Source: a virus
Taxonomy: Duplodnaviria > Caudoviricetes
Length of the DNA stretch: 55,020 nucleotides
Strand: one strand, 5' to 3'
Virus record (IMG/VR): IMGVR_UViG_3300009156_000035
Span: 1-55,020 of that record
The translations under genes and the position numbers were made by a program. The notes under the pieces were generated by a model. It ran no database searches. It had not been told where the DNA came from and was given only the letters and a program-made list of their open reading frames with translations. The first letter of the stretch is position 1. Each line of letters opens with the position of its first letter. This document shows, in pieces, positions 3,400 through 53,211 of this stretch.

Positions 3400-4068
3400 C
3401 TAAGTTGCCGTCGTCTGGTAGCCGCACTCTGCGGTCGGCTGCGCGGCCTGGTCGTACCAGAAGCCGCCCGGCGCAGCTGCAGGGATCGGCTCCGGCATGT
3501 CGCCGTACGGCCCGTCGCCCCAGCTCTCGTTGGTGCGCGAGAAGCCGTTGACGACCGGCTGCGAGAAGTCGTTGCCGAGCTGCAGGTTCCCCATCTGCCA
3601 GAAGGTGCGCGGGAAGAGGAAGTGGATGTACGGCCAGTCGGCGTCCGGCGCGTCGTTGACCCACGCGTCGGCCCAGAACTCGACCGCGACAGCCGTCGGC
3701 TCGAACTCGCAGCCGACCTGCGACGGGTACCAGACGCCGATCGGCACCGGAGACGTCGAGGCGTCTTCGATCACCGTCGCGCCGATCAGCATCTCCAGGA
3801 GCGCAGGCTCCAGAGCGCCGGAGTTGATCACGAAGTCGAACCGCTTGAGGCGATCCGGGTCCTTGCGCGTTGCGACGATGCAGCCGCAGCCGCCGATGAG
3901 GTCGGTCTCCTGACCTGCGACGACGTTCGGGTTCATCTGCACCGTGATGAGATCGTCGGACACGTAGCTGTTGTCCGGCCCTGCTGCGACCGTCCCGTCC
4001 GCGTTCAGCCGCGTCACCCGGAAGCGGCAGACGTGGAGGGGGATTGCGCAGATCTCTGGGTTCTGCAT
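3400..4068 (-). CDS. Probable major tail (tube) protein
   Basis: 222 aa acidic protein with N-terminal RVTRLxxxG motif typical of actinophage tail tube proteins; follows capsid genes; RBS AGGAGAG. Confidence 0.55.
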   Translation of the reverse strand: MQNPEICAIPLHVCRFRVTRLNADGTVAAGPDNSYVSDDLITVQMNPNVVAGQETDLIGGCGCIVATRKDPDRLKRFDFVINSGALEPALLEMLIGATVIEDASTSPVPIGVWYPSQVGCEFEPTAVAVEFWADAWVNDAPDADWPYIHFLFPRTFWQMGNLQLGNDFSQPVVNGFSRTNESWGDGPYGDMPEPIPAAAPGGFWYDQAAQPTAECGYQTTAT

Positions 4069-4977: not shown

Positions 4978-6738
4978 TCAGCAGGTGATTGCCGTCGCCG
5001 TCGGACCCGTCTCACCCGTCGGGCAGACCGTGGATTCGATCTCCAGGGACTCCGGCCCGACGAACGCGACCTGCTCGAACGACTCGCCGAAGATCCGGTA
5101 GTCGTTCGTGTTGTTGAGCGTGGAGTCGCGGACGATCCCCAGCTCCAGCGTGCCCCCGTCGAGGAAGAGGAAAGACCCCTCGGGGAAGATGTACCAGACC
5201 ACCGTGTCGGGGAAGTCGAGCACCGCTCCGGTGCCCTGAGCGCCGAAGATCTGGCCCTCACCCGTCGGCGAGTCGAGGTAGAAGCTGATCGACACGCGCG
5301 CGAGCGACTCCAGGAGCTGCTCGACGCCTGCGATCGAATACTCGAAGCGGATGAACTGGCTGTTGACCAGGTCCGCCACGAGCAGGTCGGCCGTCCAGGC
5401 GGGCATGATGACCCGCAGCCGGGCGTTCGGATCCATGCGGTGCCGGGAGCGCATCCCGGCCGCTGCGCGCAGGATCGTGTAGAGCAGCGAGGACGTCGCG
5501 CCGTAGACCTTCGTCGACGTGACGGCCGTCGAGTAGCTCGCGATCCCGTCGAGCAGAGCGGTCTCCGCCACGCGCGCGTGCGCGGCCATGACCAGCTCGT
5601 TGAACTGCGCGACCTGCTCCGGCCAGGCTCGGGAGTTGAGGTTCCCGAACTGGACGCAGTGGTAGATCATGGAGAGCAGTGCCTCTTCGAAGTCGGGGCA
5701 CGCCACGATCTGGCAGCTCTTCTCGGCCGTGGTGCCACCGGCCGCGTCCTGCGCGGCGGTGCGGATCCCGACCGCTCCGTTGGAGCCGGACGTCTCGACG
5801 TCCGTCAGCACGGGCACCTGCGCGAAGCGGAGACCGCCGCGCGAGGCGATGAACCCTGCGAGCGCGTCCCGCACCGGGCGGGCCGTGGTCGAGATGTTCA
5901 TCAGGTCGTAGTACGGGGTGACCGGGGCGCAGAGACCGCCGGAGGCGACCAGTGCGTCCCTGGAGACGACGGCGTCGATCTTCTCCTGGTCGTTCGGCTC
6001 GCCACGGAGGACGCGCTCCTCCGGGAACAGCTCGCCGTACTTGACCGAAGCGACGAGCGCCTTCTCTTCGACGCCCTGCCTGGTGCCGACGCCCTGCTCG
6101 CGCTTCTTGATGATGGCCTTCGCCAGCTCCATCCGGTCGAGGTGCACGCCCTCGCCGAAGCCGGGGACCCCGGCCGAGGCGACGATCGCTGCACCACTCG
6201 GCTCCGCCGGGAGCGGCTGCTGCTCGGCGGTGGGCACCGGCAGCGGCGGCTTCTTCTCCGCCTTGCGCTTCGCGGGAAGCTCACCGGCTGCGAGCACCGG
6301 CTCCGCCTCTTCGACGATCTCGACCTCGGCCTCTGCGACCGGCTCGTCGGCCTCGGCCTCTGCCTCGGCGCTGACCGGCACGCTCTCGTCGTCGGGCGTG
6401 TCGCCCTCGGGCGTGTCACCCTCCGGGGTGTCGCCTTCCGGCGCGTCCCCTTCGACGTTGATCCCCGCGCCCTTGGCCAGCTCTTCGAGCGCAGCCTCGA
6501 ACTCGGTGTCGGCCTGACCGAGCACTTCGAGCCGCTCGGTGATCGTGTCGATGTCGGCCTTGACGTTCTTGAACACTTCGAGCGCCTCGGCGCGGCTCAT
6601 GTCTCCGAGCAGCTCCGGGTCTCGGTCGAAGATGCGCTTGCCGATCCCGCGCAGCTCCGTCAGGTGCTCCTGGAGCTTCTCGGCGTCGAGCGCCTCGAAG
6701 TTCTCCGGAAGATCGGGATAAAGCCTGTCTTCTGCCAT
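4978..6738 (-). CDS. Major capsid protein precursor with N-terminal acidic scaffold-like domain
   Basis: MAEDRLY start with RBS GAAAGG; acidic/coiled N-terminus with EGDTP repeats; LVASGGLCAP junction; C-terminal LDGGTLELGIVRDSTLN.TNDY motif of cluster-B-like MCPs. Confidence 0.85.
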   Translation of the reverse strand: MAEDRLYPDLPENFEALDAEKLQEHLTELRGIGKRIFDRDPELLGDMSRAEALEVFKNVKADIDTITERLEVLGQADTEFEAALEELAKGAGINVEGDAPEGDTPEGDTPEGDTPDDESVPVSAEAEAEADEPVAEAEVEIVEEAEPVLAAGELPAKRKAEKKPPLPVPTAEQQPLPAEPSGAAIVASAGVPGFGEGVHLDRMELAKAIIKKREQGVGTRQGVEEKALVASVKYGELFPEERVLRGEPNDQEKIDAVVSRDALVASGGLCAPVTPYYDLMNISTTARPVRDALAGFIASRGGLRFAQVPVLTDVETSGSNGAVGIRTAAQDAAGGTTAEKSCQIVACPDFEEALLSMIYHCVQFGNLNSRAWPEQVAQFNELVMAAHARVAETALLDGIASYSTAVTSTKVYGATSSLLYTILRAAAGMRSRHRMDPNARLRVIMPAWTADLLVADLVNSQFIRFEYSIAGVEQLLESLARVSISFYLDSPTGEGQIFGAQGTGAVLDFPDTVVWYIFPEGSFLFLDGGTLELGIVRDSTLNNTNDYRIFGESFEQVAFVGPESLEIESTVCPTGETGPTATAITC

Positions 6739-6838
6739 GCCTGACCTTTCCTCTGAACGAGTGCGGTGCACTGCTACTCGCCCGAGGCGCTAAGGCCAGG
6801 GCTGACGACCAGCGGCTAGGCGGCTGCTCGTTGGCGCG

Positions 6839-8137: not shown

Positions 8138-8156
8138 GCGTACCACCTCCACCTTC

Positions 8157-8170
8157 AGTATAGCGCATTC
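8157..8170 (-). promoter_or_regulatory. Early-type promoter -10 (AATGCGCTATACT)
   Basis: Repeated motif, followed by RBS GGAGGTGG. Confidence 0.65.
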
Positions 8171-8177
8171 AGCGCAC

Positions 8178-8515
8178 AGCCGGGGGGCCGGGGTTCGAAC
8201 CCGGTGGCGCTACCCGGCCGCAACCGGACGCCCGCCTGCTCTTGTTCGGCACACCGCGCCTCAACCAGAGTGGAATCCGGGTTCTCGCGCTGGATCGCTC
8301 ACCCGGTGCCCAGTGGCCGCTGCTCCCCCCAGCTCTACGCTGGAGCCGATCCTGACGAGAGGGGGATCGTGGCCTGGGCGCGCTGGCTCGACCGTACGTT
8401 GCCACTTCGCCTCCCAGGGACTGACCACGCCCCTCTCGCCCGCCGTGCCTCGGAGGCGGGGAAGGGCCACCCGGCTTTGTTGCGGGAGCGACCCGCGCAA
8501 CCGTCGCCCTACCAC
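8178..8515 (-). ncRNA. Putative structured RNA with tRNA-like 3' domain
   Basis: T-arm CCGGG-TTCGAAC-CCCGG (8204-8188), then CCCCCCGGCT pairing with AGCTGGGGGG (8334-8325); own promoter at 8526-8538; no canonical cloverleaf or CCA. Confidence 0.45.
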
Positions 8516-8525
8516 CTCCATACGT

Positions 8526-8538
8526 AGTATAGCACAAT
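8526..8538 (-). promoter_or_regulatory. Early-type promoter, extended -10 (TGTGCTATACT)
   Basis: Repeated motif just downstream of a terminator. Confidence 0.6.
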
Positions 8539-8540
8539 AC

Positions 8541-8570
8541 GAGAGAGGCCGGGCGCTAACCCGGCCTCTC
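8541..8570 (-). terminator. Terminator-like hairpin
   Basis: GAGAGGCCGGG/CCCGGCCTCTC inverted repeat closing the 8850-8545 unit. Confidence 0.6.
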
Positions 8571-8850
8571 CCAGGTGAAGGTGGCCACCCTCACCCGCCG
8601 TCGCCTTCCAGGTGCGCACCCTTCTGGCTCAGACTCGGCGGGGCACTTGGCGCTGAGTGTCGCGCGGTGTGCGCGGGGCGTATCCTTCCGGCTTTCGCTG
8701 CCGTGGCTTGCCCGTCCAGCCGTTGCCCTAGGACCTGGCTGACGTCGCGCCACCGTTCGTGCTCGGTGTCGTTACCCCCGGAGGGACCCGGATGGACTGC
8801 GTTTCCGATGGCCCCGCCTGGTGGCCGGGAGCGGGTCTCCCCTCTCCCAA
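8545..8850 (-). ncRNA. Putative ~300-nt non-coding RNA
   Basis: Bounded by a consensus promoter and a hairpin; several GNRA-capped hairpins (GCGAAAGC, CCGGAAGG); no ORF with phage-like codon bias. Confidence 0.4.
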
Positions 8851-8858
8851 CCAACTAG

Positions 8859-8887
8859 AGTATAGCGCATTCTTTGGAGGGTGTCAA
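8859..8887 (-). promoter_or_regulatory. Near-consensus sigmaA/sigma70 promoter TTGACA-N17-TATACT
   Basis: TGTCAA at 8882-8887 and AGTATA at 8859-8864 on plus strand, 17-bp spacer. Confidence 0.85.
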
Positions 8888-8981
8888 GTGAGCCAGTCGT
8901 GTAGTGGCGGCGGGATTCTTCCTTGACATGGGATAACCCGTCACCTTCGGCCCGGCCCACTAATGAGCCACCGCTAAGAGA

Positions 8982-9164
8982 TTAGCGCATTTCGCGAGTG
9001 GTGCCGAGCTTCCTTATCGCCGCCGCCGACGCAGCCATCGCATCACCCGTCGCCGCCAGCGCCGCCGTCGCCGCCTTGATCCGAATCTCCCACATCGGCG
9101 GTCGACCGAGCGCCTGCCAGTACAGATGCTGGCGATTCAGCTCTCGCGGTAGCTCGCCCTTCAT
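8982..9164 (-). CDS. Hypothetical 60-aa protein with RxxxYxxALG motif
   Basis: ATGA overlap with upstream gene; contains RQHLYWQALG. Confidence 0.55.
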   Translation of the reverse strand: MKGELPRELNRQHLYWQALGRPPMWEIRIKAATAALAATGDAMAASAAAIRKLGTTREMR

Positions 9165-22798: not shown

Positions 22799-23083
22799 TC
22801 ATTCGCAGCACCGGTCGCAGACAGAGACGGTTGTGAACTGGCCGCAGACCATGCAGGTGCCGCGCCTCGCGCCTTCCGGCCCCAGCGCCTTCTCGTACAG
22901 CTCGTACCGATCGCGGAAGTCGTAGCGCTGCTGGAGCTGTCGCACGAGGACGCGGTAGTCCGTCATCTCGACCGGGGGCTTGTCCAGCTCGCGCCGCACG
23001 CTGCCGACGACTACGTAGAGCACCAGGCCGATCAGGAACCAGAAGCCCAGGGCAGCGAGCAGGCCGAGGAGCGCGATCATCAT
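22799..23083 (-). CDS. Membrane protein with RxxxYxxALG motif and C-terminal Zn ribbon
   Basis: N-terminal TM; RYELYEKALG; CMVC…CDRC. Confidence 0.65.
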   Translation of the reverse strand: MMIALLGLLAALGFWFLIGLVLYVVVGSVRRELDKPPVEMTDYRVLVRQLQQRYDFRDRYELYEKALGPEGARRGTCMVCGQFTTVSVCDRCCE

Positions 23084-37410: not shown

Positions 37411-37631
37411 TCTTCCTCCACGGGCGTCTCGGTCGTCACGATGCTCCAGCAGAGCAGCAGCAGCGTCAACGCCTGGAGCACGCGCAGGGCGACCGTCTTC
37501 TCGACGGACGTCCAGGTGAGGATCGTCGCGAGCACGAACACGACGCCCAGCCAGAAGCCCCACGCGCGTCGCTCGCGGGCGCTCGTCCGGGAGGCCAGCC
37601 AGTCGCTGGGTCCGAAGAAGATCCGCTTCAC
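37407..37631 (-). CDS. Small two-TM membrane protein
   Basis: GTGA overlaps on both sides; two hydrophobic helices. Confidence 0.6.
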   Translation of the reverse strand: MKRIFFGPSDWLASRTSARERRAWGFWLGVVFVLATILTWTSVEKTVALRVLQALTLLLLCWSIVTTETPVEEE

Positions 37632-39601
37632 AAGACCCTGTCGAGGTAGGCCCGGAGACGCGGCGGGAGCGGCGGCGGGTTCTCCTCGAACAGCGTCTTG
37701 GCGGCGTGCTCCTCCAGCATCAGCGCGATGCGGCGACCGATCGCCGGATCGACACCGAACTCGGCGGCTACGTCGGCGAAGCCGTCCCCGGCCCCCTTGA
37801 CCAGCTCTTGCGGCGTACCCAGGCTCGCGCCGGAGCACTTCTCCATCCCGAGCAGCGCCGCTACGCCGGTCGTCCCCGACGGGGGCACGCTGGCGACGAG
37901 CGCGTGCAGCCCCTCGTCCTTGCGCACGCGGGTGCGCAGACGTGACCCGGCCAGCTCGCGTGCTCGGCGGGTAGTTGCCCTAGCAACACCGGCCAGCTCT
38001 GCGGCGTAACCGGAGGCAGCGACGGAGCTGTTCCCGTTCTTCTTCACCGTCTTGTCGTCGACCTGATCGACCTGCGACTCCTCCTCGACCTCGGCGCTGT
38101 CGTCCTTCTCCGGAGGCGGCTCCCCCTCGGCGGTGTCGTCCTGCAGCAGATCGTCGACCGACGGCTGCGGCATGACCGGCTCCGGCTTCTCCGGCCGGTA
38201 CTTCTCGGGCAGCATCTGCGGATCGTTGAACTGCTTCGCGAGGGCGATCCGGAACTCCTCGTCGTCGGGTTCGTCGTCGTCGTTGAAGCCGCCCGCGTCG
38301 CGCCAGGTCGCCCCGCTCAGCTCTCCCTGCGCATACAGGGCGGCGGCGTCCTTGTTGCGGTCGGGGTTGTTGATGACCTCGGCCGGGTCGTACCAGATCG
38401 TGTAGTCGGCCCAGTTCTCGACGCCCTGCTTCTTCAGGTACGGGCGCAGGTAGACGCCGGTCAGATCCTCGACGAAGAGGTTGGCCATCGGCTGCAGGTG
38501 GGCGCTCCAGGTCTGGTCATCGACCAGCCAGGCGCTCCAGTGGTTGGCGTCGCCCACGCCGAGCAGCTGCTCCTTGGGGAAGTCGAGACCGATCGCGATC
38601 CGGCTGATCAGCTCCGTCCGCAGCCCCTGCTCCTCGTACTTCTCGTTGGGACTGCCGATCGGGATCCAGCGCAGCTCCTTGAGGTGCTCGGCAGGACCCT
38701 GGATCACGATCGGCACCACTGCGGCGGCTGAGCCAGGGTCGCGGATCGCGGTGGTCGCCGCCCTGTGCAGCAGCTGCATGACCGGCGACTTCGTCTGGTC
38801 CTGCTCTGCGCCGGTCGGCATGTTCGCGAAGATGATCTCGGTCGGCACGGCGAGGATCCCGGCCCCGTTGAGGCGGGAGCGCGCGCGGGCACGGACGGCC
38901 AGCTGGAGCAGCTGTAGCTCCTCGAACAGCGTCAGGCAGGCCCGCATCGGCGCGTCGGCGAGCATGGAGTAGCTCGGGTGCCTGCGCCAGAGGCGGTAGA
39001 CGACCGCCGTCTTCTGGTTCCCCTTGTCGACCGGCTCGAAGTCGTCGTCGGGTGCAGTCAGCAACTCCTCCGGCGAGACGGACGGCGCGGCGTAGCGGAC
39101 GTAGCCCCGGCCGGGCGCGAGCCGCAGCTCGTTCGAGGACAAGCACTCCCAGACCTCCTCCTCGGTGTCCGGGTTCTCGGTCACGGTCAGGTAGGTCTCT
39201 CCGGTGAGGAACATCAGCCGTGCCCACGCGGCCTGGAACTGGGAGCGGCCCCCGCTCGGGTCCTTGATCCGCTCCAGCGCCTGGACGCCGGGGTCGTCCG
39301 GCTCGTCCTTCAGCTCCGTGACCTCGCCCTGCTCGTCCTTCTTGGCGATGTAGAGCCTCAGCTTGCCGATCGCGCGCGCGTAGAACTGGGCCGCGTACCA
39401 GGCCTCACCGCAGCTGTCGTACATGGTGAGCGCCTCGTTCTGCCACAGCTGGCTGAGGCGGCGGTACTGCTCGGCGCGCGAAGGGTTGACGCGTTGCCCA
39501 CCCGCAGTGAGGGCCTTGCGGTCTGCGCCAGGAACGAGCGGGATGTCCTCCTCGGGGAAGAAGACGCCGCCGTTCGTAGGCAGCTTGCGTGGGCGTGCCA
39601 C
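37628..39601 (-). CDS. Portal protein
   Basis: ~657 aa upstream of MuF; GETYL, RLWRRHP…ADAP, RSRLNGAGIL, GLDFPKEQLLG.GDANHWSAW motifs of cluster-B-like portals. Confidence 0.85.
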   Translation of the reverse strand: MARPRKLPTNGGVFFPEEDIPLVPGADRKALTAGGQRVNPSRAEQYRRLSQLWQNEALTMYDSCGEAWYAAQFYARAIGKLRLYIAKKDEQGEVTELKDEPDDPGVQALERIKDPSGGRSQFQAAWARLMFLTGETYLTVTENPDTEEEVWECLSSNELRLAPGRGYVRYAAPSVSPEELLTAPDDDFEPVDKGNQKTAVVYRLWRRHPSYSMLADAPMRACLTLFEELQLLQLAVRARARSRLNGAGILAVPTEIIFANMPTGAEQDQTKSPVMQLLHRAATTAIRDPGSAAAVVPIVIQGPAEHLKELRWIPIGSPNEKYEEQGLRTELISRIAIGLDFPKEQLLGVGDANHWSAWLVDDQTWSAHLQPMANLFVEDLTGVYLRPYLKKQGVENWADYTIWYDPAEVINNPDRNKDAAALYAQGELSGATWRDAGGFNDDDEPDDEEFRIALAKQFNDPQMLPEKYRPEKPEPVMPQPSVDDLLQDDTAEGEPPPEKDDSAEVEEESQVDQVDDKTVKKNGNSSVAASGYAAELAGVARATTRRARELAGSRLRTRVRKDEGLHALVASVPPSGTTGVAALLGMEKCSGASLGTPQELVKGAGDGFADVAAEFGVDPAIGRRIALMLEEHAAKTLFEENPPPLPPRLRAYLDRVL

Positions 39602-39603
39602 GG

Positions 39604-39741
39604 TTACTTCTTGGCCTGCGTCTTGTTGACGCGAGCGGCGACTTCCTGCCTGCGGGCCTCGCGCTGAGCAGCTCTGCGCTCCATGCGAGCCTGCATCTCC
39701 GCCTGCTTCTCCTCCCTCGTCTTGCCACAACCACAACCCAT
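39604..39741 (-). CDS. 45-aa basic peptide starting MGCGCGK (not in ORF track)
   Basis: RBS AAGGAG; first gene after the late promoter. Confidence 0.6.
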   Translation of the reverse strand: MGCGCGKTREEKQAEMQARMERRAAQREARRQEVAARVNKTQAKK

Positions 39742-39802: not shown

Positions 39803-40111
39803 CTAGTGGTCGAGCTTCGCGATCAGAGCGACGGTGGCGCTGAGTGCCCAGGGGAACGCCAGGCCGATCGTCCAGTCCGGCGACAGCAGCCACGCCAGCC
39901 ACACGATCACGCCGAGCCAGAAGCCCAGGCACCAGGGGCAAGTGATCAGCTTGTCGAGCTTCTCCAGGCGCTCCTCAGCGAGCTTGTCGAGCGCCCACTC
40001 GCGCGGCCGGTCGGCGATGTCGTCCTCCGCGATCAGCCGATAGACGCGGAACACGGCCAGCGCCAGGATCAGCGCCCCCCACCAGTCCGGTATGTGGTCA
40101 GGCCAGCTCAT
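39803..40111 (-). CDS. DUF1360-like membrane protein
   Basis: RVYRLIAEDDI…LITCPWCLGFW signature. Confidence 0.75.
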   Translation of the reverse strand: MSWPDHIPDWWGALILALAVFRVYRLIAEDDIADRPREWALDKLAEERLEKLDKLITCPWCLGFWLGVIVWLAWLLSPDWTIGLAFPWALSATVALIAKLDH

Positions 40112-41027
40112 GTGCCGACCTCCGCCACCAGTCCTCCCTCGGTAGCCCATCATCACCCAGCGTCCGCACCCACTCCAGCGTGCGCTCCATCCCCTCTTCC
40201 AGCTCGACCTCCGGTGCCCAGCCCAGCCTGCGAATGCGCTTGGTGCTGAGCCGCTTGACGACCGTCTGGTTCGAGGGAGCGCGGATCTCCTTGATCAGCG
40301 AGTACGGAGCGTCCGTCAGCTCGCAGGCGATCCCGGCCACACGGCGCATCAGGACGGCGGCGTCGTCGCGGCCGACGTTGTAGACGCCCGCCTTCCAGTC
40401 TTCGATCACGAGCCGAGCTGCGCGGACGGTGTCGCCGATCCAGCACCAGGAGCGCTCCGCCCCCAGGTGGACGGGGATCGTTGCCCGGCGCTCCGCCTGC
40501 CAGAGCATGTTGACGATCGCCGCCCTGCCCCGGCCTGCCGGAAGCCCCGGCCCGTAGGGCATGCTGAAGCGCAGGATCGCCAGGTCGCGGGGGGCGTAGA
40601 GCTGACAGACGTGCTCGCCCCAGTACTTGCTCAGGCCGTAGATGTTGTGCGGCAGCACGAACGGCCCCTCGACCTCGTCGCACTCCCGGTCACCGTTGTC
40701 GCCGTACACCTCGCTGGTCGAGGCGTAGACGAGTCGTGCGCCGCAGTTGGCGGCTGCTTTCGCCACGAGCGCTGTCATGCAGGCGTTGTCGGCGATCGTC
40801 TCCGCCGGGTTGTCCTCGCCGAACAGGCGACCGACCTTGGCAGCCAGGTGCACGACGCAGTCGGGCAGCCAGGCCTCGACGACGCGCTCCGCAACACCGG
40901 GGAGCCGCAGGTCGTCGGTCGGGTCGGTGAGCATGTCGATCCCGTAGACGGTGTGGTCGTGCTCCTCCAGCTCGCGCGTCAGGTGCTGGCCGATGAAGCC
41001 CCGGTAGCCCGTGACCAGGACCCTCAT
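40098..41027 (-). CDS. NAD-dependent epimerase/dehydratase (extended SDR)
   Basis: VTGYRGFIG, HLAA, ASTSEVYG, YGLSK catalytic motif. Confidence 0.9.
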   Translation of the reverse strand: MRVLVTGYRGFIGQHLTRELEEHDHTVYGIDMLTDPTDDLRLPGVAERVVEAWLPDCVVHLAAKVGRLFGEDNPAETIADNACMTALVAKAAANCGARLVYASTSEVYGDNGDRECDEVEGPFVLPHNIYGLSKYWGEHVCQLYAPRDLAILRFSMPYGPGLPAGRGRAAIVNMLWQAERRATIPVHLGAERSWCWIGDTVRAARLVIEDWKAGVYNVGRDDAAVLMRRVAGIACELTDAPYSLIKEIRAPSNQTVVKRLSTKRIRRLGWAPEVELEEGMERTLEWVRTLGDDGLPREDWWRRSAHELA

Positions 41028-43987: not shown

Positions 43988-44000
43988 AGTATAGCGCATT
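43988..44000 (-). promoter_or_regulatory. Early-type promoter (AATGCGCTATACT)
   Basis: Repeated motif. Confidence 0.65.
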
Positions 44001-44598
44001 AGACGGCCAGGCCGTGCTTCACCCGGATCTGATGATAGGTGTGCGCTGCGACGCGGCGGTGTCCGGGGGCGTTGCGCGACACACGGCTGACGTGCGCCTT
44101 GTAGACCGCGTCGGGCACGTAGACGATCGGCACCCCGCGCAGATGCACGGTCAGGAACAGATCCCAGTCCTCGTAGCACGGCCACTCCTGGAAGCCGCCC
44201 GCCTCGAAGAAGGTGTGGCGACGGATCAGGGTGCCGATCACGCAGCGGTTGATCGCGCGCATGTCGCCAGGCTCGTTCGGAAGGCAGGCCGGAGCGGTCT
44301 TCCGGCGGGGGTCGATGTACTTGACCGCCGGGGCCAGCAGCGCCTCCCCCCCATCCACGTAGCGGCTCATCGCGTCGACGTAGCCGAAGTCCAGCTCGTC
44401 GTCAGCGTCGAGGAAACAGAGCCACTCCGTCTCCACCTGCTCGGCGGCGAAGTTGCGCACCTCAGCGAGCGTGGCGTCGGGTAGGTGGAAGACGTACGTG
44501 TTCGCCTGCCCCGTCGCCGACGGGTACGCGCGTGAGAACGCCAGGTCGCGCCAGCGTTCGTCGCCGTGCGAGCAGATCAGGATCGTGAGGTCTTCCAC
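43999..44598 (-). CDS. GT2 glycosyltransferase
   Basis: FLDADD, GGF and YEDWDL motifs. Confidence 0.8.
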   Translation of the reverse strand: MEDLTILICSHGDERWRDLAFSRAYPSATGQANTYVFHLPDATLAEVRNFAAEQVETEWLCFLDADDELDFGYVDAMSRYVDGGEALLAPAVKYIDPRRKTAPACLPNEPGDMRAINRCVIGTLIRRHTFFEAGGFQEWPCYEDWDLFLTVHLRGVPIVYVPDAVYKAHVSRVSRNAPGHRRVAAHTYHQIRVKHGLAV

Positions 44599-45335
44599 AG
44601 CCGCTCTCGCTGGCGGAACAGTCGCAGGTCGGTTCGCGTCTTGGCGGCACCGAGCTGGTAGACCTCGTCGCGCTTGCCCTTGCGCCAGACCGGGTGCAGG
44701 TGCTCGACGACCGCCTCCTGGCAGTAGCCGTACTCGCCGCGAGCCTGCGCCGTCCACATGAACTCGGTGTCGACGTAGGTGTGGTCGTAGCCGGTGTGGA
44801 AGATCGCGTTCGGCTCGTCTGCTGTGCCGCGCTCGAAGTACGAGCGCGCCACGAGGAAGTGGGGGGCCGGGGGGATCTTGTGCCGCGAGGCCCAGCGACC
44901 CAGGTCATTCACGCCCATGGCGTGCTTGCCCTGTGTCTCGGCGCAGGCGATTGCCTTCTCCGCCCAGCCCGGTTCGAAGTGCAGGTCGTCGGCGGCGGTG
45001 AAGATCCACGGCTCCTTCGTGAGCGCCGCGCCGAGGTTGATCTTGCGCGCGTAGTCGCCGGGCCTGCGTCCCTCGTACAGCTGCACGTAGTCGCAGTCGA
45101 GGGCCTTGACCGCCGCCATCTCCTTGCGGTCGTGGAGGCTGACCATGAACACCGGCCGCAGGGCCACCTCGACCACCGACTCCATCAGAGACGAGTAGAC
45201 GAGGAGCGCGCGCTGCGGCCTGTAGAGCACAGGGAGGACGACGCGAACGCCGTCCTCCCTGGTGTCGAGACGCTGCTCGGCGATGCCCACGTCTACAGGC
45301 ACCAGCGATAGCCCTTCATGTTCAGACCGCCCCAC
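44577..45335 (-). CDS. GT-A glycosyltransferase (start uncertain)
   Basis: VVLPV…KINLG…AADD…YVDTE…EHLHP. Confidence 0.7.
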   Translation of the reverse strand: MGRSEHEGLSLVPVDVGIAEQRLDTREDGVRVVLPVLYRPQRALLVYSSLMESVVEVALRPVFMVSLHDRKEMAAVKALDCDYVQLYEGRRPGDYARKINLGAALTKEPWIFTAADDLHFEPGWAEKAIACAETQGKHAMGVNDLGRWASRHKIPPAPHFLVARSYFERGTADEPNAIFHTGYDHTYVDTEFMWTAQARGEYGYCQEAVVEHLHPVWRKGKRDEVYQLGAAKTRTDLRLFRQRERLWKTSRS

Positions 45336-46212: not shown

Positions 46213-46552
46213 TGGTCATCCTCCTGCTCGGGGACGGGATAGGCACGCTTCGGCGTGCTGCGCCGGGGTGGACCATCGACGCGATCTCAATCACCTCGTG
46301 GCGAGAGAGACCGGAGTCGTGGAGCCACCAGTCGGCGTACTCCTCCGTCTGGTCCGGCGTGCAGGGTTGGGCCGTCTCGACCCGGCGACAGGTCTCACAG
46401 AGCCGTCGCGTTTCGCCCTTCTGGATACGCCGTGCCTGGCGGACACTTGTCTCGTAGTACTCCTTGCATTCGCCGCAGCGGATCAGCGCCACCCGCGCGT
46501 CGCGGGGGCGCTGGTAGTCCCTGCGCTTGACCTCCCACGTTTCCGCTTCCAT
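46121..46552 (-). CDS. Zn-binding hypothetical protein
   Basis: CGEC…CETC; TGATG overlap with terL. Confidence 0.55.
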   Translation of the reverse strand: MEAETWEVKRRDYQRPRDARVALIRCGECKEYYETSVRQARRIQKGETRRLCETCRRVETAQPCTPDQTEEYADWWLHDSGLSRHEVIEIASMVHPGAARRSVPIPSPSRRMTSEEGHRTASTGVGAIRISGLGLTVNVSTAA

Positions 46553-48096
46553 CAGATCTCGCCCTCCGGGATGAAGATCCCCCCCAGGCCTACGTGAGGG
46601 TTGGCGTTGACCCAGTTGATCGCCTGGCTCCAGGCGTCGACCTGGTCGTCGTTCGCGCCCCGGTTGAACTGGGCGCACTCTTCGATGAAGTCCTGCACCC
46701 AGCCAGGGGTCTGGGCCGAGTCGCAGTCGGTCTGGTTGGCGTTCGCGACGCCCGGCAGGAAGCAGTTGTTCGACTCCAGGGTCGGCTGCGCCGTGCTCGC
46801 CCGCAGGTACTTGTCCGTGCTCACGGTGACGTCGACGACGCCAGTGATCTCGCGCTTCAGCTCGGCGATGATGTCCGCGCCGTTGCCCGACTTCTCAATC
46901 AGGTGGTTGAGCGGCAGGTAGGGCCAGATCCCTCGGATCCAGCCGTTGAACTCCTTCATCGCGCGCTTGGTCGCGCCGTAGAGCATCTGCTCGCGGTGGC
47001 TGCGGAGGAGGAAGAAGTCGGCCCCCTTGACGCCCCAGACCTGGCCGACCACGTAGTCGCTCGACGTCTTGTCCTTGAAGGCCGTGTCCCAGCTCGTCAC
47101 GATCCGGTCGAAGGCGAAGCTGCTCGGCTTCTCGTCGAAGCGCTTGCGGTCGAAGTAGCGCCAGTCCGCGCGCTTGAGCAGGTCGCCCTCACGGGCGGAC
47201 GGGCGCTGCTGCAGCTGCCCTGCCGCCTCGTGCGCGCCGAGCTTCTTGGCCCGGTTCTTGTTCTCGCGATCGCTGACGCGGGCAGGCCAAAGCAGCTCCC
47301 CCTCCTGCACGCGCTCGTCCTGCGGCCAGACGAACGGATGCGACGGCTCGTAGCGCTCCGGCAGGCAGACGATCTCCCAGTCGTCGTAGTACTGCAGCGC
47401 GTAGCCCGCCAGGTCGTTCGTGTGGAGGCGCTGCATGATGATCACCTCGGCCAGCTCGCCGGGGTCGGCTGCTCGGGTGGCCAGCGTGCCGGAGTACCAC
47501 TTGTTCGCCTTCTCCAGCTTCGAGCCGGAGGCGATCTCCATCGGCTTGAGCGGGTCGTCGATCACGATCCTGTGCGCGTGACGGCCGGTGACGCCGCCGT
47601 CGGGGGAGGTGACGTAGCGGCGACCGCCTGCGGTCGTGACGTAGTCGCCCTTCTGGTTGGCGTCCTCGCGCATGCTGACCTGCCAGCGGCGCTGGTACCA
47701 CTCGCTGAGCACGACGTCGCGCGTCTTGGCCGAGAAGTCGAGGCCGAGGCTCTCCTCGTAGGAGCCGGTGATGTAGCGCAGCCACGGTCTCCGCGTCCAC
47801 TCCCAGGCGGGCCACAGGATGCTGGCGAGGATGCTCTTCATGGAGCCGGGCGGCACCCAGATCTGCAGGTGCCTCACGTCACCGGTCGAGACCCAGGTGA
47901 GTGCCTCGCAGATCGCGGGGATGTGCCAGTTGTCCTTGAACGGCGTGTGTGGCTCTATCTCCCGCCACGCCGCCTTGACGAAGGCGTAGTAGCTGTGGCT
48001 GAGCAGCTCCGCCTCGGTGCGGAGCTGGTCCTCGGCCTCGAAGCGGAGGCGCATCTCCCCTGCGGTGAGGGGGCGCTCCTCCTCGGTGATCGTCAC
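46552..48096 (-). CDS. terL: Terminase large subunit
   Basis: PPGSMKS Walker A-like, TGRHA…IVIDDP Walker B, IMQRLH, SWDTAFK nuclease motif, DDQVDA. Confidence 0.92.
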   Translation of the reverse strand: MTITEEERPLTAGEMRLRFEAEDQLRTEAELLSHSYYAFVKAAWREIEPHTPFKDNWHIPAICEALTWVSTGDVRHLQIWVPPGSMKSILASILWPAWEWTRRPWLRYITGSYEESLGLDFSAKTRDVVLSEWYQRRWQVSMREDANQKGDYVTTAGGRRYVTSPDGGVTGRHAHRIVIDDPLKPMEIASGSKLEKANKWYSGTLATRAADPGELAEVIIMQRLHTNDLAGYALQYYDDWEIVCLPERYEPSHPFVWPQDERVQEGELLWPARVSDRENKNRAKKLGAHEAAGQLQQRPSAREGDLLKRADWRYFDRKRFDEKPSSFAFDRIVTSWDTAFKDKTSSDYVVGQVWGVKGADFFLLRSHREQMLYGATKRAMKEFNGWIRGIWPYLPLNHLIEKSGNGADIIAELKREITGVVDVTVSTDKYLRASTAQPTLESNNCFLPGVANANQTDCDSAQTPGWVQDFIEECAQFNRGANDDQVDAWSQAINWVNANPHVGLGGIFIPEGEI

Positions 48097-48311
48097 GCGC
48101 CGTCGCCGCCGTTCACGAACGCGACCCCTTCGAACACCTCGCCGAAGATCTCGTAGTCGCTGACGCCCTGCAGCTGCGAGTCGCGGACGAGGCCCAGGTC
48201 GAGGGTGCCGCCGTCGAGGTGGATCCACGAGCCGCCGACGGGAACGTCGTCGACCATCGCGAGCGGCTCTGGTAGCCCGAGCGCGCGCCGGTAGAGCGCC
48301 TCACGGTTCAC
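48093..48311 (-). CDS. Microprotein carrying an MCP C-terminal fragment and RxxxYxxALG motif
   Basis: GSWIHLDGGTLDLGLVRDSQL…DYEIFGEVFEGVAFV aligns with MCP GSFLFLDGGTLELGIVRDSTL…DYRIFGESFEQVAFV; GTGA overlaps. Confidence 0.75.
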   Translation of the reverse strand: MNREALYRRALGLPEPLAMVDDVPVGGSWIHLDGGTLDLGLVRDSQLQGVSDYEIFGEVFEGVAFVNGGDGA

Positions 48312-48544
48312 TGGTCAAGCTCCTCGGGGATCGGCAGGAGCAGCTCCGGGGGGAGGTCGAAGCCGTGGGCGATCTTCTTGATCGCGTCCATGCGGATCGT
48401 GTGGAGCTGGTAGACGGGGCTGAGTGGAGCGCAGATTCCCCCGGTCGCGAACTCGAAGCGCAGGTCATGGATCCGGTCTCGCAACCCGAGCGCCTCCCGG
48501 TACTGCCGCTGGCGGTGGTACAGCGTCAGCGAGTCGAGGCTCAC
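48308..48544 (-). CDS. Microprotein carrying MCP and portal fragments and RxxxYxxALG motif
   Basis: ATGGICAPLSPVYQL vs MCP ASGGLCAPVTPYYDL; IRMDAIKKIAHGFDLPPELLL vs portal LRTELISRIAIGLDFPKEQLL. Confidence 0.7.
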   Translation of the reverse strand: MSLDSLTLYHRQRQYREALGLRDRIHDLRFEFATGGICAPLSPVYQLHTIRMDAIKKIAHGFDLPPELLLPIPEELDQ

Positions 48545-49044
48545 TGCGTGATCTCCCTGACCACCTCGGCGTCGATCACCTTGTCGTCGGGCAAGGTGGC
48601 GAGGATGTCACGGATCGCGCGCAGCTGCTCGGTCGGCAGCGAGCGCGGGTCGAGCACCAGTCCGTGCTCGTGCCGGGTGCGCTGGTCGATCCGCCGGGTG
48701 CGTTTGTAGTCCATCTCCCCAAGCCGCGCCTCCGCCATCAGCACCAGCAGGCGGGGAGAGGCTTCGTCCCTGCGGTCGAAGGCGCGCTCCATCACCTCGT
48801 GCCGGATCCGCTCCTGCACCTGCTCCTCGAAGTCCGGCAGCAGCTGGTTGTAGAGCGCGCGGAACTCCTGATCGTGGCGCAGCAGGCTGACGAAGCGACG
48901 GCCGGTGGAGCCGACCGCGCGCGCTGCAGCGACGTGAGACATCCCCTCTTCGCGGCAGGCCAGGTAGCGAAGCTGCTGCTCCCGAGTCGGCTTACGAGAG
49001 GCTGGAACCAGTCGCGTGTACGTCTCTTGGAGAGTTTCGCCCAC
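48541..49044 (-). CDS. Probable terminase small subunit
   Basis: N-terminal HTH-like (AAARAVG), helical body, C-terminal IDAEVV; upstream of terL behind a late promoter. Confidence 0.65.
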   Translation of the reverse strand: MGETLQETYTRLVPASRKPTREQQLRYLACREEGMSHVAAARAVGSTGRRFVSLLRHDQEFRALYNQLLPDFEEQVQERIRHEVMERAFDRRDEASPRLLVLMAEARLGEMDYKRTRRIDQRTRHEHGLVLDPRSLPTEQLRAIRDILATLPDDKVIDAEVVREITQ

Positions 49045-49083: not shown

Positions 49084-49914
49084 CTAGAGCGGCAGGTCGT
49101 CTTCAGGGGAGGCCGGAGGGGTAGGGGCGTCAGCTGACGCGGCACCGCTCTCCCCCTCCGGGGCTGGTGGCACAGCCACTTCCTCCCCCGAAGTCTCGGG
49201 CACGGGCGCGGCGTGGCGCTCGTAGGCCTCGTTGAGCGCGGTCACGATCACGTCCTTCGCGCTGCGCACCTTGTAGGCCTGCTTCAGCAGCCGCACCTGC
49301 TCCTCGTACCGGTCGTGCTCGTCCTGCGTCAGGTCGATCGGCACCTTCTTGTAGCTCTTGGTCGCCCGCACGCGCGCGGCTGCTTCCTCGGCGGTCTCGG
49401 CGGGAGGCCCCTTCCACGGCTCGACTTGGGCCGGTGGTGCCTCGACTCCGGATTCGGCGCGGAGCTGCTCGACGGTGTCGATGTCCCAGCCGGTGCCCTG
49501 CAGGTTGTCGCCGATCAGGTCGAGTAGCGCGAGCTGCTGCTGCACGGAGGCGTCCTCGTCGCCCACGCGCGCGAGGCGGTTGTCCGCCATCAGGTAGGCG
49601 AGCGCCTCCCCTTCGTCGGAGAACTCGGCAGCGATCGCGGCGATATGCGTCCAGCCCAGCTCCTCGGCGGCGCGCGTCACGTGGTGGCCGGTGCGGATCG
49701 TGGTGCCGTCGGAGGCGTCGATCGTGATCGGCCTCGTCTGGCCAAAGCGGGTCAGGCTGGCCTTGAGACGGCCGACGTGCGCCTTGCCCTTGTCGGGGTT
49801 GCCCTCGGTCGGCTGCAGCAGGCTGATCCGGCACAGGTACGGCCGCAGCTGCTCAGCGCCGCGCCAGGTGTGCTGATCGTCGGTCTTCGACTGAATCTCA
49901 GTCTGTTCGCTCAC
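49084..49914 (-). CDS. ParB/Srx N-terminal domain protein
   Basis: GNP…SLTRFGQTRPI…TGHH…AAEELGW…ADNR. Confidence 0.8.
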   Translation of the reverse strand: MSEQTEIQSKTDDQHTWRGAEQLRPYLCRISLLQPTEGNPDKGKAHVGRLKASLTRFGQTRPITIDASDGTTIRTGHHVTRAAEELGWTHIAAIAAEFSDEGEALAYLMADNRLARVGDEDASVQQQLALLDLIGDNLQGTGWDIDTVEQLRAESGVEAPPAQVEPWKGPPAETAEEAAARVRATKSYKKVPIDLTQDEHDRYEEQVRLLKQAYKVRSAKDVIVTALNEAYERHAAPVPETSGEEVAVPPAPEGESGAASADAPTPPASPEDDLPL

Positions 49915-52023: not shown

Positions 52024-52199
52024 GGTTCGAGCGCCCTTCGGTAGAGGTCTCGTCTCGCACTGAGGATGTGGCGCTGGCGCTTCCACTCGCGCTGGCGCAC
52101 CTGGGTTCGCCGCTCCCAGTCGGCCTTGCGCTCCTCCCGCGTCTTCCTCGGCACGCGGCCAGCCAGCCAGTCGTCGAGGGTGGCCCGCTCGTCACCCAC
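52020..52199 (-). CDS. 59-aa basic protein with RxxxYxxALE motif (not in ORF track)
   Basis: MGDERATLDDW…ARRDLYRRALEP*; stop overlaps the next ATG. Confidence 0.55.
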   Translation of the reverse strand: MGDERATLDDWLAGRVPRKTREERKADWERRTQVRQREWKRQRHILSARRDLYRRALEP

Positions 52200-52419
52200 C
52201 GAGCGCCGCCTCGTACAGTCGCATCCGATCGTTCGCCTGCGTCCAGAGCGTGAAGCCGTTGACGACGCTGTCGCGATGAATCAGGAACCAGTGGTCGCCG
52301 ACCTTGGAGATGCGCGGCTTGCGCTCGCGGACGACCGGCGTCGGTGGATCCTCGCGCAGCTGGTGCGCGCGCATCTGCTGCAGCCGGTGCTCAGCGGCCT
52401 TCCGCTCCCAGTTCCTCAC
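52192..52419 (-). CDS. Hypothetical protein ending in RMRLYEAALGG
   Basis: RBS AGGAGGTGG; GTGA overlap. Confidence 0.6.
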   Translation of the reverse strand: MRNWERKAAEHRLQQMRAHQLREDPPTPVVRERKPRISKVGDHWFLIHRDSVVNGFTLWTQANDRMRLYEAALGG

Positions 52420-52621: not shown

Positions 52622-52828
52622 TCACGCGCCCAGCGCCTCTCGGTAGAGGACCTGCCTTCGATACTCGTCGGTCGCGATCCCCATCAGCTTCCGGGCGTGC
52701 GCGTTGGAGATAGCGCCTTGCTTCAGCAGGGCCTGCAGGTGGTCGAATGCCTGCTGTGCTTGCACCGCGTCGGCGGCGACGTGCACAACGACCGAGCCGT
52801 CCGGCTGGAAGTCGATCCCGACGCTCAC
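52622..52828 (-). CDS. Hypothetical protein ending in RQVLYREALGA
   Basis: GTGA overlap with upstream gene. Confidence 0.55.
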   Translation of the reverse strand: MSVGIDFQPDGSVVVHVAADAVQAQQAFDHLQALLKQGAISNAHARKLMGIATDEYRRQVLYREALGA

Positions 52829-53211
52829 GGCTTCGGGTTGCGCCCACGCCGCACCAGCTCGTAGGGCAGCTGGTAGTGCGCGCTCAGCACGTGGATCACC
52901 GACGACGACTGCGTCGTCTTCCACTCGCGTGCGGCGCTCCAGAACGACGCCCAAAGAGGGTGGTAGTGCGGGATGCTCAGCTGCAACTGGTCGCTCAGCG
53001 TCGGCTCCGAGCGCGAGCGGTTGCCGGTTGCCGGACACTCCGTGCCGAAGTGCTCCGCAAGGATGCAGAGCGCCACGTCGCTCACCGACAGCTCCTGCCG
53101 CTCGGCGTCCGCGATCAGCGCCGCCTTGACGCCCTTGGGGACGTTACGGATGTTGAGCAGCCGATCGCGTCCCAGGTCTGTCGTGACCGCCTGTGCCTCT
53201 TCGTCTGGCAC
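52825..53211 (-). CDS. Ribbon-helix-helix (FitA/Arc-like) DNA-binding protein
   Basis: LNIRNVP..VK.AL…A….SV; RBS GGAGGT. Confidence 0.6.
   Translation of the reverse strand: MPDEEAQAVTTDLGRDRLLNIRNVPKGVKAALIADAERQELSVSDVALCILAEHFGTECPATGNRSRSEPTLSDQLQLSIPHYHPLWASFWSAAREWKTTQSSSVIHVLSAHYQLPYELVRRGRNPKP

Follow-up and report, generated by a model that had tools for sequence, protein, structure and literature searches.

Two small genes between terS and terL

The DNA analysed here (in its full length, the window) is a linear 55,020-bp virus record of IMG/VR, IMGVR_UViG_3300009156_000035, whose minus strand carries nearly all of its genes. Between the genes for a putative small and the large terminase subunit (terS and terL) lie two short open reading frames (ORFs), micro2 and micro1, whose products are assembled from short modules. 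One of these, module A, is common to both; the others—B, C and D—copy or resemble pieces of the phage's own major capsid protein (MCP) and portal protein (Table 1). On the minus strand, the order runs from a ParB-like gene through the putative terS, micro2 and micro1 to terL. An earlier inspection of the window (the original prediction) had reported both ORFs and their coupling by GTGA overlaps, and the ORF list and the junction sequences bear out the coordinates as well as the coupling. Three such start/stop overlaps tie terS to micro2 (...agggagatcacgcaGTGAgc...), micro2 to micro1 (...gaggagcttgaccaGTGAac...) and micro1 to terL (...gcGTGAcg...). Shine-Dalgarno (SD)-like hexamers—agggag and gaggag—stand 8 nt upstream of the GTG starts of the small ORFs, and the GC content by codon position is of the coding type (third position, GC3, 0.92 in micro1 and 0.91 in micro2; second position, GC2, 0.41 and 0.38). 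Judged from these signals, micro1 and micro2 are real late genes, translationally coupled to terS and terL. A pattern scan likewise recovered the predicted R...Y..ALG sequence (module A) near the N-terminus of both products.

Table 1. Features of the window discussed in the text. The last three columns compare the window with IMG/VR locus L042 (amino-acid (aa) identity; nonsynonymous and synonymous divergence, dN and dS, by the Nei-Gojobori method, NG86). pLDDT, predicted local distance difference test.
Feature	Positions (strand)	Length or residues	Description	aa identity	dN	dS
micro2	48308..48544 (-)	78 aa	Module order A-B-D; between terS and terL	39%	0.68	1.17
Module A in micro2	48485..48514 (-)	aa 11-20	RQRQYREALG			
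Module B in micro2	48386..48457 (-)	aa 30-53	FEFATGGICAPLSPVYQLHTIRMD; copies start of MCP N-arm			
Module D in micro2	48323..48385 (-)	aa 54-74	AIKKIAHGFDLPPELLLPIPE; resembles most conserved portal block			
micro1	48093..48311 (-)	72 aa	Module order A-C; adjoins micro2 stop and terL start	45%	0.58	1.13
Module A in micro1	48276..48305 (-)	aa 3-12	REALYRRALG			
Module C in micro1	48114..48233 (-)	aa 27-66	Copies MCP C-terminal beta-hairpin			
MCP block matching module B	5878..5955 (-)	aa 273-298	ALVASGGLCAPVTPYYDL...; coil, pLDDT <50 at 278-283			
MCP block matching module C	5059..5178 (-)	aa 532-571				
Portal block matching module D	38555..38638 (-)	aa 367-394	...LISRIAIGLDFPKEQLLGV; just before nearly invariant DANHW			
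MCP	4978..6771 (-)	597 aa	phrog_777 E 4e-82; NF033847 332 bits			
Portal protein	37628..39736 (-)	702 aa	phrog_776 E 8.5e-108			
terS (putative small terminase subunit)	48541..49044 (-)	167 aa	Stop overlaps micro2 start (GTGA)	75%	0.20	1.27
terL (large terminase subunit)	46552..48096 (-)	514 aa	phrog_38 E 7e-86, Terminase_6C, TIGR01630	68%	0.26	0.75
ParB-like gene	49084-49914					
Prohead protease	10907-13183 (-)	758 aa	phrog_18402 and phrog_859			
Unrelated ORF	52192..52419 (-)	75 aa	Ends in module A (RMRLYEAALGG, stop)			
Unrelated ORF	52622..53038 (-)		Ends in module A (RRQVLYREALGA, stop); true start uncertain			
Unrelated ORF	8982..9164 (-)	60 aa	Module A near N-terminus (RQHLYWQALG)			
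Unrelated ORF	22799..23083 (-)	94 aa	Module A, then CxxC...CxxC tail			

Capsid- and portal-like blocks in the microproteins

BLASTP aligned residues 27-66 of micro1 without gaps to residues 532-571 of the MCP, with 27 of 40 positions identical (E 3e-16), and comparison of the micro1 and MCP families by hhalign returned the same block C at 99.5% probability (E 5.2e-23), in keeping with the predicted ungapped match between ~40 aa of 48093-48311 and the MCP C-terminus. In micro2, residues 33-54 matched MCP residues 276-297 (11/22 identical, E 9e-6) and residues 45-72 matched portal residues 367-394 (11/28 identical, E 3e-4). The corresponding hhalign comparisons gave 95.5% probability for block B against the MCP family (E 1.5e-8) and 65.6% for block D against the portal family (E 5.8e-5, ~26 columns), the portal link being the weakest of the three because of this last figure. 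The checks by BLASTP and by profile alignment that the original prediction had called for thus yielded significant MCP links for both ORFs; its view of 48308-48544 as a junction of MCP and portal pieces held for the MCP part and is moderately supported for the portal part. When 80 small ORFs were compared all-against-all with 22 large coding-like ORFs of the window, these three pairs were the only matches with E < 0.01. On the strength of these alignments, blocks B and C derive from the MCP and block D probably derives from the portal. That block B represents the N-terminus of the mature MCP, as the original prediction had it, we treat as an assumption.

Described families do not take in the two proteins. 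The MCP model NF033847 aligned to micro1 over residues 27-64 with 14.7 bits, under its cut-off of 75, so that by this measure micro1 is not an HK97-fold MCP; the model also picked up B and C in a fused relative, P0062, again under the cut-off, and gave no match to micro2. A PHROG scan of both proteins returned no phrog_777 match at E ≤ 1, the single weak match of micro2 being to the portal family phrog_776 (E 0.1 over 24 residues), and membership of phrog_776 or PF04860 across the portal core was not found for micro2. Pfam had no match for micro2 at E ≤ 1, the helix-turn-helix (HTH) models PF01381 and PF13443 included; PADLOC-DB had none at E ≤ 1 for micro1, micro2, P0062, P0047 or P0015; and ESM Atlas offered no usable match for micro1. 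None of the family libraries (Pfam, PHROG, NCBIfam above cut-off, PADLOC) fits micro1 or micro2. Nor do proteins of 72 and 78 aa accommodate a complete HK97 fold (N-arm, E-loop, spine helix, P and A domains), and their relative P0021 was modelled with one helix only. As a self-mimicking type, micro1 and micro2 fit no described family, and among the papers found in literature searches no title or abstract opening told of capsid- or portal-derived microproteins.

The copied blocks within their source families

The MCP, source family of modules B and C, has an HK97 fold with a long N-terminal scaffold-like part. Its AlphaFold2 (AF2) model (28 sequences; mean pLDDT 74) has a helical N-terminal part joined by a disordered linker to an HK97-type body, and the best Foldseek matches of the model in the PDB were HK97-type capsid proteins; a PDB search by sequence returned no match for the MCP and, for the portal, one chance match to a mannitol dehydrogenase. 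Mapping the fragments onto the predicted MCP structure, as the original prediction had suggested, showed block C to be a long beta-hairpin whose strands (534-547 and 557-570) flank a short helix (550-554; ten-residue mean pLDDT of the stretch 69-95) and block B to be coil immediately before the shell body. If the usual order of HK97-fold elements applies, the N-arm would begin with B and the P-domain would contain C.

Across 28 aligned MCPs, conservation is highest in B and C, with G279 and C281 invariant in B and L537, D538, G540, G545, R548, D549, S550, L552, N556, F561 and E563 invariant in C. Of four conserved cysteines in the MCP family, C281 and C358 are invariant, and C353 and C372 almost invariant; the first of them, C281, belongs to block B and is retained in most micro2-type proteins. 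A disulfide or a metal site in the N-arm region is possible. Block D falls within the best-conserved portal block, ...RIA.GLD.PPE.LLG..DANHW, which is present in 13 of 15 aligned portal-region ORFs; of the remaining two rows, L089 is a wrong ORF and L084 diverges. In L082 (G002, a related phage of 92 kb with terminal repeats), the portal is interrupted just behind DANHW by an intein-like stretch of ~430 residues.

Micro-type C blocks share a mean identity of 54% with each other and of 55% with MCPs, whose own C blocks are 68% identical among themselves. Being as close to MCPs as to one another, the micro-type blocks are held near the MCP consensus. The window's own MCP matches micro1 at 24 of 38 positions, the best of the 28 MCPs at 25 of 38, which led us to reject recent duplication of, or gene conversion with, the resident MCP gene; the original prediction had likewise noted divergence from the genome's own genes, and the resident MCP is indeed not the MCP closest to micro1. 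The copied blocks are therefore old and freer to evolve than the MCP, yet kept near the family consensus. Among soil metagenome contigs at 80% likeness to the window, many unrelated ones pile up only on 48146-48227, the DNA that encodes LDGGTLDLGLVRDS (depth peaks, runs X6 and X8), showing that this MCP type and this block are common in those soils.

Intact homologues and rapid divergence

The order terS-micro2-micro1-terL is kept in three lineages: the window, the IMG/VR loci L042/L043—whose TerS and TerL are 75% and 68% identical to those of the window—and a 1854-nt soil-metagenome contig. In L042/L043, micro2 and micro1 homologues of 75 and 72 aa lie between terS and terL, coupled by ATGA and TTGA overlaps; the genes occupy the same location on the contig, which we take, from its length, to be the one recorded for P0005 and P0007. 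Between window and L042, micro1 and micro2 have diverged far more than terS and terL (Table 1). Conservation at codon positions 1, 2 and 3 is 0.62, 0.63 and 0.42 in micro1 and 0.52, 0.60 and 0.44 in micro2, lowest in both cases at position 3. The NG86 ratio dN/dS of the two genes is ~0.5-0.6 and, given that dS is saturated, a rough sign of constraint. This comparison between relatives had been proposed at the outset, and it agrees, together with the most diverged third codon position, with the view that the genes are not duplication debris; so do intact syntenic homologues in two other lineages and a metagenomic family of ~20 members. L042 also encodes, at 3477-3557 (+) between terS and the micro2 homologue, a 26-codon ORF for a purely hydrophobic peptide (VSIPDGLMLVIVLLMILVVIHLLVAH) that has no counterpart in the window.

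Profile searches of contig collections yielded little further. The terS profile found no match in metagenome or genome contigs and, in IMG/VR, the two known loci only; the micro2 profile found none in metagenome or viral contigs, and two IMG/VR loci at 39% identity to micro2, lying within ORFs of 329 and 2176 aa, were judged unrelated. All 37 IMG/VR loci found with the micro1 profile were full-length or end-truncated MCP genes.

A modular family and a travelling capsid block

A search of 5.8 billion proteins returned one clear full-length homologue for each ORF (58% and 59% identity). Profile searches widened the set to 56 proteins of 39-126 aa for micro1 and, in an exhaustive search, to 12 proteins for micro2, three of which were set aside as very long proteins similar over a short stretch only. 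Homologues of micro2 comprise P0005, P0059, P0060, P0064, P0065, P0066, P0068 and P0069, those of micro1 P0002, P0006-P0010, P0025, P0039 and P0042. Their modules have the consensus R..LY..ALG (A, N-terminal), LVASGGLCAPLSPVY (B), G.F.YLDGGTLDLGLVRDS.L...NDY.IF.E.FE (C) and I..IA.AFDLPPELLLP.P (D).

Nine proteins (micro1 and eight others) are of the type A-C, and seven (micro2 and six others) of the type A-B-D. P0066 and P0068 are A-B, and in P0066 the MCP similarity seems, by eye, to extend into the next MCP block. Fused forms also occur, namely A-B-C in P0021, A-C-D in P0009 and P0022, and D-A-B-C in P0062 (119 aa). Defined as module A plus at least one of B, C and D within ~65-120 aa, the family includes both window ORFs and 20 further proteins. 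That the same blocks are found now fused in one ORF, now split over two neighbouring ones, suggests a joint action. In L042, micro1 retains a degenerate B (LKASGGVAV) between A and C, on which ground we read micro1 and micro2 as paralogues descended from an A-B-X ancestor. Such an ancestor was probably an internally deleted mini-MCP, and A-B-C would correspond to an MCP that lacks everything between the start of the N-arm and the C-terminal hairpin.

Block C also occurs apart from module A. About half of the 56 short proteins found with the micro1 profile are MCP C-termini cut by contig ends. Nine others join a zinc-ribbon-like N-terminal part (CxxC...CxxC) to a C-terminal ...DGGTLDLGLVRD..L...ND[YF].[IV]F, five join a signal of the twin-arginine translocation (TAT) type directly to block C (Pfam TAT_signal on P0015, E 2.3e-5), and two carry another N-terminal part. 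In genome contigs, the TAT-type profile found two loci, both MCP genes; in IMG/VR, the zinc-ribbon profile found 204 stretches, and all 80 that were kept lie in MCP-length ORFs or in MCP genes cut by contig ends. The range of its carriers marks block C as a portable element.

In the AF2 model of the A-B-C protein P0021 (mean pLDDT 58), the sole formed element is helix A (residues 6-14). The microproteins alone are thus predicted to be largely disordered, which is compatible with folding on binding. A complex prediction for MCP residues 265-597 with micro1, run without controls, scored 0.00 against a mark of 0.32, a result that weighs neither for nor against binding.

Module A occurs in unrelated proteins

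R...Y..ALG occurs six times in the window, each time in a minus-strand coding frame, as compared with a mean of 0.06 and a maximum of 1 in 200 codon shuffles. Searched for as degenerate DNA, the pattern appears 0-1 times per record in 17 other phage records. The four copies outside the microproteins lie in unrelated ORFs (Table 1), none of which is assigned to a family; for those at 52192-52419 and 52622-53038, family scans found no match. The relative G020 has module A in a non-homologous, transmembrane (TM)/Cys-rich ORF (L177, 3861-4475 (+)). A DNA-level signal was rejected as an explanation, since micro2 of L042 keeps the peptide pattern LYADAL with different codons, and so was a copy of an MCP or portal block, for which hhalign showed no match. 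Module A, which is an amphipathic helix motif in the microproteins, looks like a lineage-specific short linear motif.

Genome setting

CheckV estimates the record to be 81% complete, and its GC content is 68%. It is represented in rhizosphere and soil metagenome runs. Its closest DNA matches in GenBank are short terminase-gene stretches of Microbacterium phages; there is also a match between 99 nt of micro1 and the gene for the major capsid protein in an Actinomycetia phage. The call of terS is weak (phrog_4044, E 0.005 only), with a 75%-identical homologue at the same position in L042. Scans of the whole window with ARAGORN for tRNAs and against Rfam found none.

Several further observations concern other parts of the window. 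Copies of an HPR.PKG...GG.F.PKG-type motif (GLHPRHPKGTEKGGQFAPKG; HPRHPKGSEAGGEFRPKGGG; GLHPREAKGSPKGGEFAPKAGG) occur in the prohead protease at 10907-13183 (-) and in the overlapping downstream ORF at 9799-11304 (-). Sugar-metabolism-like genes lie amid the structural genes at 40098-41027 (-), 43999-45335 (-) and 9161-9799 (-), one of them nucleotide-sugar epimerase-like (phrog_540, E 2.6e-49) and one weakly glucosyltransferase-like (phrog_854, E 3e-4). Roughly 800 nt between protease- and MCP-side genes (~8150-8980) hold no ORF with coding-type GC3. At one end of the record (~100-2800), a cluster of small plus-strand ORFs (102-233, 246-494, 570-794, 807-1106, 1125-1265, 1569-1718, 1785-1934, 1935-2375 and 2628-2792) displays mutual mosaic similarity, up to 76% identity over 46 aa and with E values down to 3e-27; it looks like a tandem, shuffled paralogue family.

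Self-mimicry as a possible docking device and the alternatives

The reading we prefer, and hold as a leading yet still doubtful one, is that micro1 and micro2 serve, through self-mimicry, as docking tags for the capsid or portal of their own phage. A free copy of a capsid or portal packing element would bind the complementary surface on unassembled or procapsid MCP or portal, and would fold on binding. Blocks B, C and D would act as address tags that place the microprotein on or inside its own procapsid at packaging time, and module A would be the part that acts on some partner. This could lead to delivery of the microprotein, in the manner of small internal or ejected head proteins, or to a local tuning of assembly at the portal vertex. 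The shuffled modules, the MCP block on unrelated N-termini (zinc ribbon, TAT-like) and the helix motif common to four unrelated proteins shift the weight somewhat towards a docking, tag or assembly role and away from a pure decoy. Docking accounts for the tag-plus-variable-partner architecture, for the block C fusions and for late, terminase-linked expression. Short portable tags by which varied cargo enters HK97-type shells have precedents in encapsulin targeting peptides and in the capsid targeting sequence of T4. The alignments establish the origin of B and C from the MCP and the conservation of the two genes; binding, location and effect of the microproteins are what we infer.

Several observations weigh against docking. 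The resident MCP is no closer to micro1 than foreign MCPs are and so gives no sign of co-evolution between the supposed docking partners. On the folded MCP, no free site suggests itself for a copied internal beta-hairpin. The portal origin of block D amounts to 26 columns at 66% hhalign probability, and D also resembles the last helices of XRE-type HTH domains. Module A stands also on proteins from the non-structural part of the genome and there misfits a purely capsid-related role. The sequence LDGGTLDLG, invariant in MCPs, has decayed to QDPAWLELG in micro1 of L042, which indicates that strict mimicry of that strand is not always retained. Finally, when the micro1 profile was run against a further 19 IMG/VR records that share this MCP family (10 estimated complete), it found the MCP gene only and a micro1-like gene in none; in GenBank phages searched by tblastn, micro1 matched MCP genes only (25 records) and micro2 nothing. 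Absence from records with the same capsid implies that the micro genes are dispensable for assembly of this capsid type, and makes the pair appear to be an accessory of one lineage, outside the capsid assembly kit.

That same accessory character (0/19 same-capsid records) is typical of counter-defence genes, and one alternative, which we think unlikely, is that the microproteins are immune decoys. The copied blocks would be the parts that host sensors read, and the microproteins would occupy these sensors without switching them on, or titrate them, and late gene expression would thereby be shielded. Direct sensing of a capsid protein or of small phage proteins by bacterial immunity is described for CapRel (available text of PMC11578894 and PMC13423816). 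As expected for a broadly acting sensor target, the copied pieces are the most conserved MCP and portal blocks; they lie near the family consensus, not the phage's own allele, and the genes evolve fast (43% and 32% identity, or 45% and 39% in the comparison of Table 1, as against 75% for TerS and 68% for TerL). To our knowledge, however, the sensors described so far turn active on contact with their trigger, and a peptide copy might therefore set off a sensor rather than block it. These sensors are said to read folded proteins, whereas the microproteins are predicted to be disordered. A simple decoy would moreover leave module A, the zinc-ribbon fusions and the TAT-like fusions without a role, PADLOC gave no match, no defence or anti-defence gene was identified beside the pair, and among the papers found in literature searches no title or abstract opening offered a precedent for a structural-protein decoy.

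A second alternative, to which we give somewhat less credence, is that the resemblance is historical: the captured blocks—an oligomerising beta-hairpin, a helix-loop-helix—would now be generic material for an unrelated job, for example in a DNA-binding or packaging-initiation factor acting with terS. Zinc ribbons often bind nucleic acid, and block C is combined with zinc ribbons; the pair adjoins terS and terL, in a large protein (P0063) an HTH-like repeat matched motif D, and the invariant LDGGTLDLG was lost from micro1 of L042. The nearest language-model look-alikes of micro2 are XRE-type HTH proteins (score 0.91, weak), but the tool itself states that chance yields Atlas scores of 0.9 in 4-10 cases out of 100, and Pfam showed no HTH match at E ≤ 1. 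Against a purely historical origin, blocks of virion proteins, three in number, recur jointly in shuffled order, which is hard to explain without a link to the virion, and they remain near the MCP consensus.

Less probable still is an assembly poison, in which dominant-negative fragments would disrupt the building of capsids or portals by co-infecting phages or satellites that share this MCP/portal type, the producer being tolerant. Truncated pieces that keep contact elements (N-arm, P-hairpin) are what a dominant-negative design would be expected to look like, and consensus-like blocks would lend it a broad spectrum among MCPs of a type abundant in the same soils (contig pile-up at 48146-48227; 204 IMG/VR stretches with the motif). 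For tails, the principle is known from Tab (available text of PMC10884400). The producer's own MCP and portal, however, carry the same blocks, and no feature of self-immunity was found; in a genome that looks lytic, the genes are part of the late packaging operon rather than of a prophage immunity region, and the role of module A is left unexplained. Least of all do we credit non-functional remnants of rearranged capsid and portal genes that stay open by chance, for although the ORFs are short, without family assignment and faster evolving than their neighbours, their length, order and overlapping start/stop codons are kept in three lineages with TerL only 68% identical, ~20 intact homologues carry conserved motifs, the codon-position pattern is of the coding type and SD-like sites precede both starts.

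What the microproteins would mean

Micro1 and micro2 offer a concrete, conserved and testable case of small proteins that a virus encodes as copies of its own most conserved structural blocks. It is possible, though we would put it a little below docking itself, that they represent the first viral 'self-epitope' system: microproteins that display invariant linear capsid and portal blocks and thereby either blind immune receptors or provide a portable address code by which effector peptides are loaded into HK97-type capsids for delivery into the next cell. Were this so, block C behind zinc ribbons and TAT-like signals would point to a code widely used in soil Actinomycetota phages. As docking tags, the microproteins would supply a natural minimal address label for cargo of HK97-type capsids, parallel to encapsulin targeting peptides, and would show how such labels originate by internal deletion of a shell gene. 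As decoys, they would embody a new principle of counter-defence and point to the capsid and portal parts that bacterial immunity reads. In either case, microproteins of packaging operons merit annotation rather than dismissal as noise, and R..LY..ALG hints at an unrecognised short linear motif of this phage lineage.

Comparison with known systems

The closest comparison is with the source families themselves. Modules B and C are homologous to two blocks of the MCP family (NF033847/phrog_777), of which the window's own MCP is a full member. The microproteins retain ~20 and ~40 residues of a protein of ~550, however, which makes an HK97 fold impossible, and are predicted to be disordered. Module D resembles the best-conserved block of the portal family phrog_776, I..IA.GLD.PPE.LLG; ~26 columns align, and the adjoining DANHW motif of the portal is absent from micro2.

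Among systems with a known action on virions, Tab is likewise a small phage-encoded factor that acts on the assembly of a virion part. According to the available text of PMC10884400, it is a prophage-encoded defence that blocks virion assembly. It differs in its target, which is tail assembly, in its expression from a prophage and in not being described there as built from pieces of its target; the sequences are unrelated.

In T4, a capsid targeting sequence (CTS) is present on diverse internal proteins (available text of PMC3012670). These proteins are likewise small, diverse and made late, and share one short conserved N-terminal element, a position held here by module A; block B, for its part, copies the MCP segment at the boundary between the scaffold-like and shell parts. 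There is no sequence similarity with the T4 proteins, and module A stands at the C-termini of other proteins as well. Head proteins of the T4 type are present in proheads and virions and lose their tag to the prohead protease; the window does encode a prohead protease.

Targeting peptides of Family 1 encapsulins have the consensus GSLxIGSL and bind the interface of P-domain and N-helix (available text of PMC12140327). Like the blocks described here, they are short, portable, found on diverse proteins and linked to an HK97-fold shell. Within block C, the core GTLDLGLVR conforms to G[ST]L.[IL]G.[LV][KR], a merged pattern shared with GSLxIGSL[KR] that has two occurrences in the six-frame translation of the window, one in the MCP and one in micro1. 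We treat this resemblance as a lead and make no call of homology. Family 1 peptides occupy a luminal groove of an encapsulin shell that is encoded nearby; no encapsulin gene was identified in the window, where the shell is the phage MCP. In contrast to the targeting peptides, block C copies a strand of the shell protein itself, and in micro1 it is internal and ~40 residues long; the zinc-ribbon carriers hold it at their C-terminus, as encapsulin cargo proteins hold their targeting peptides.

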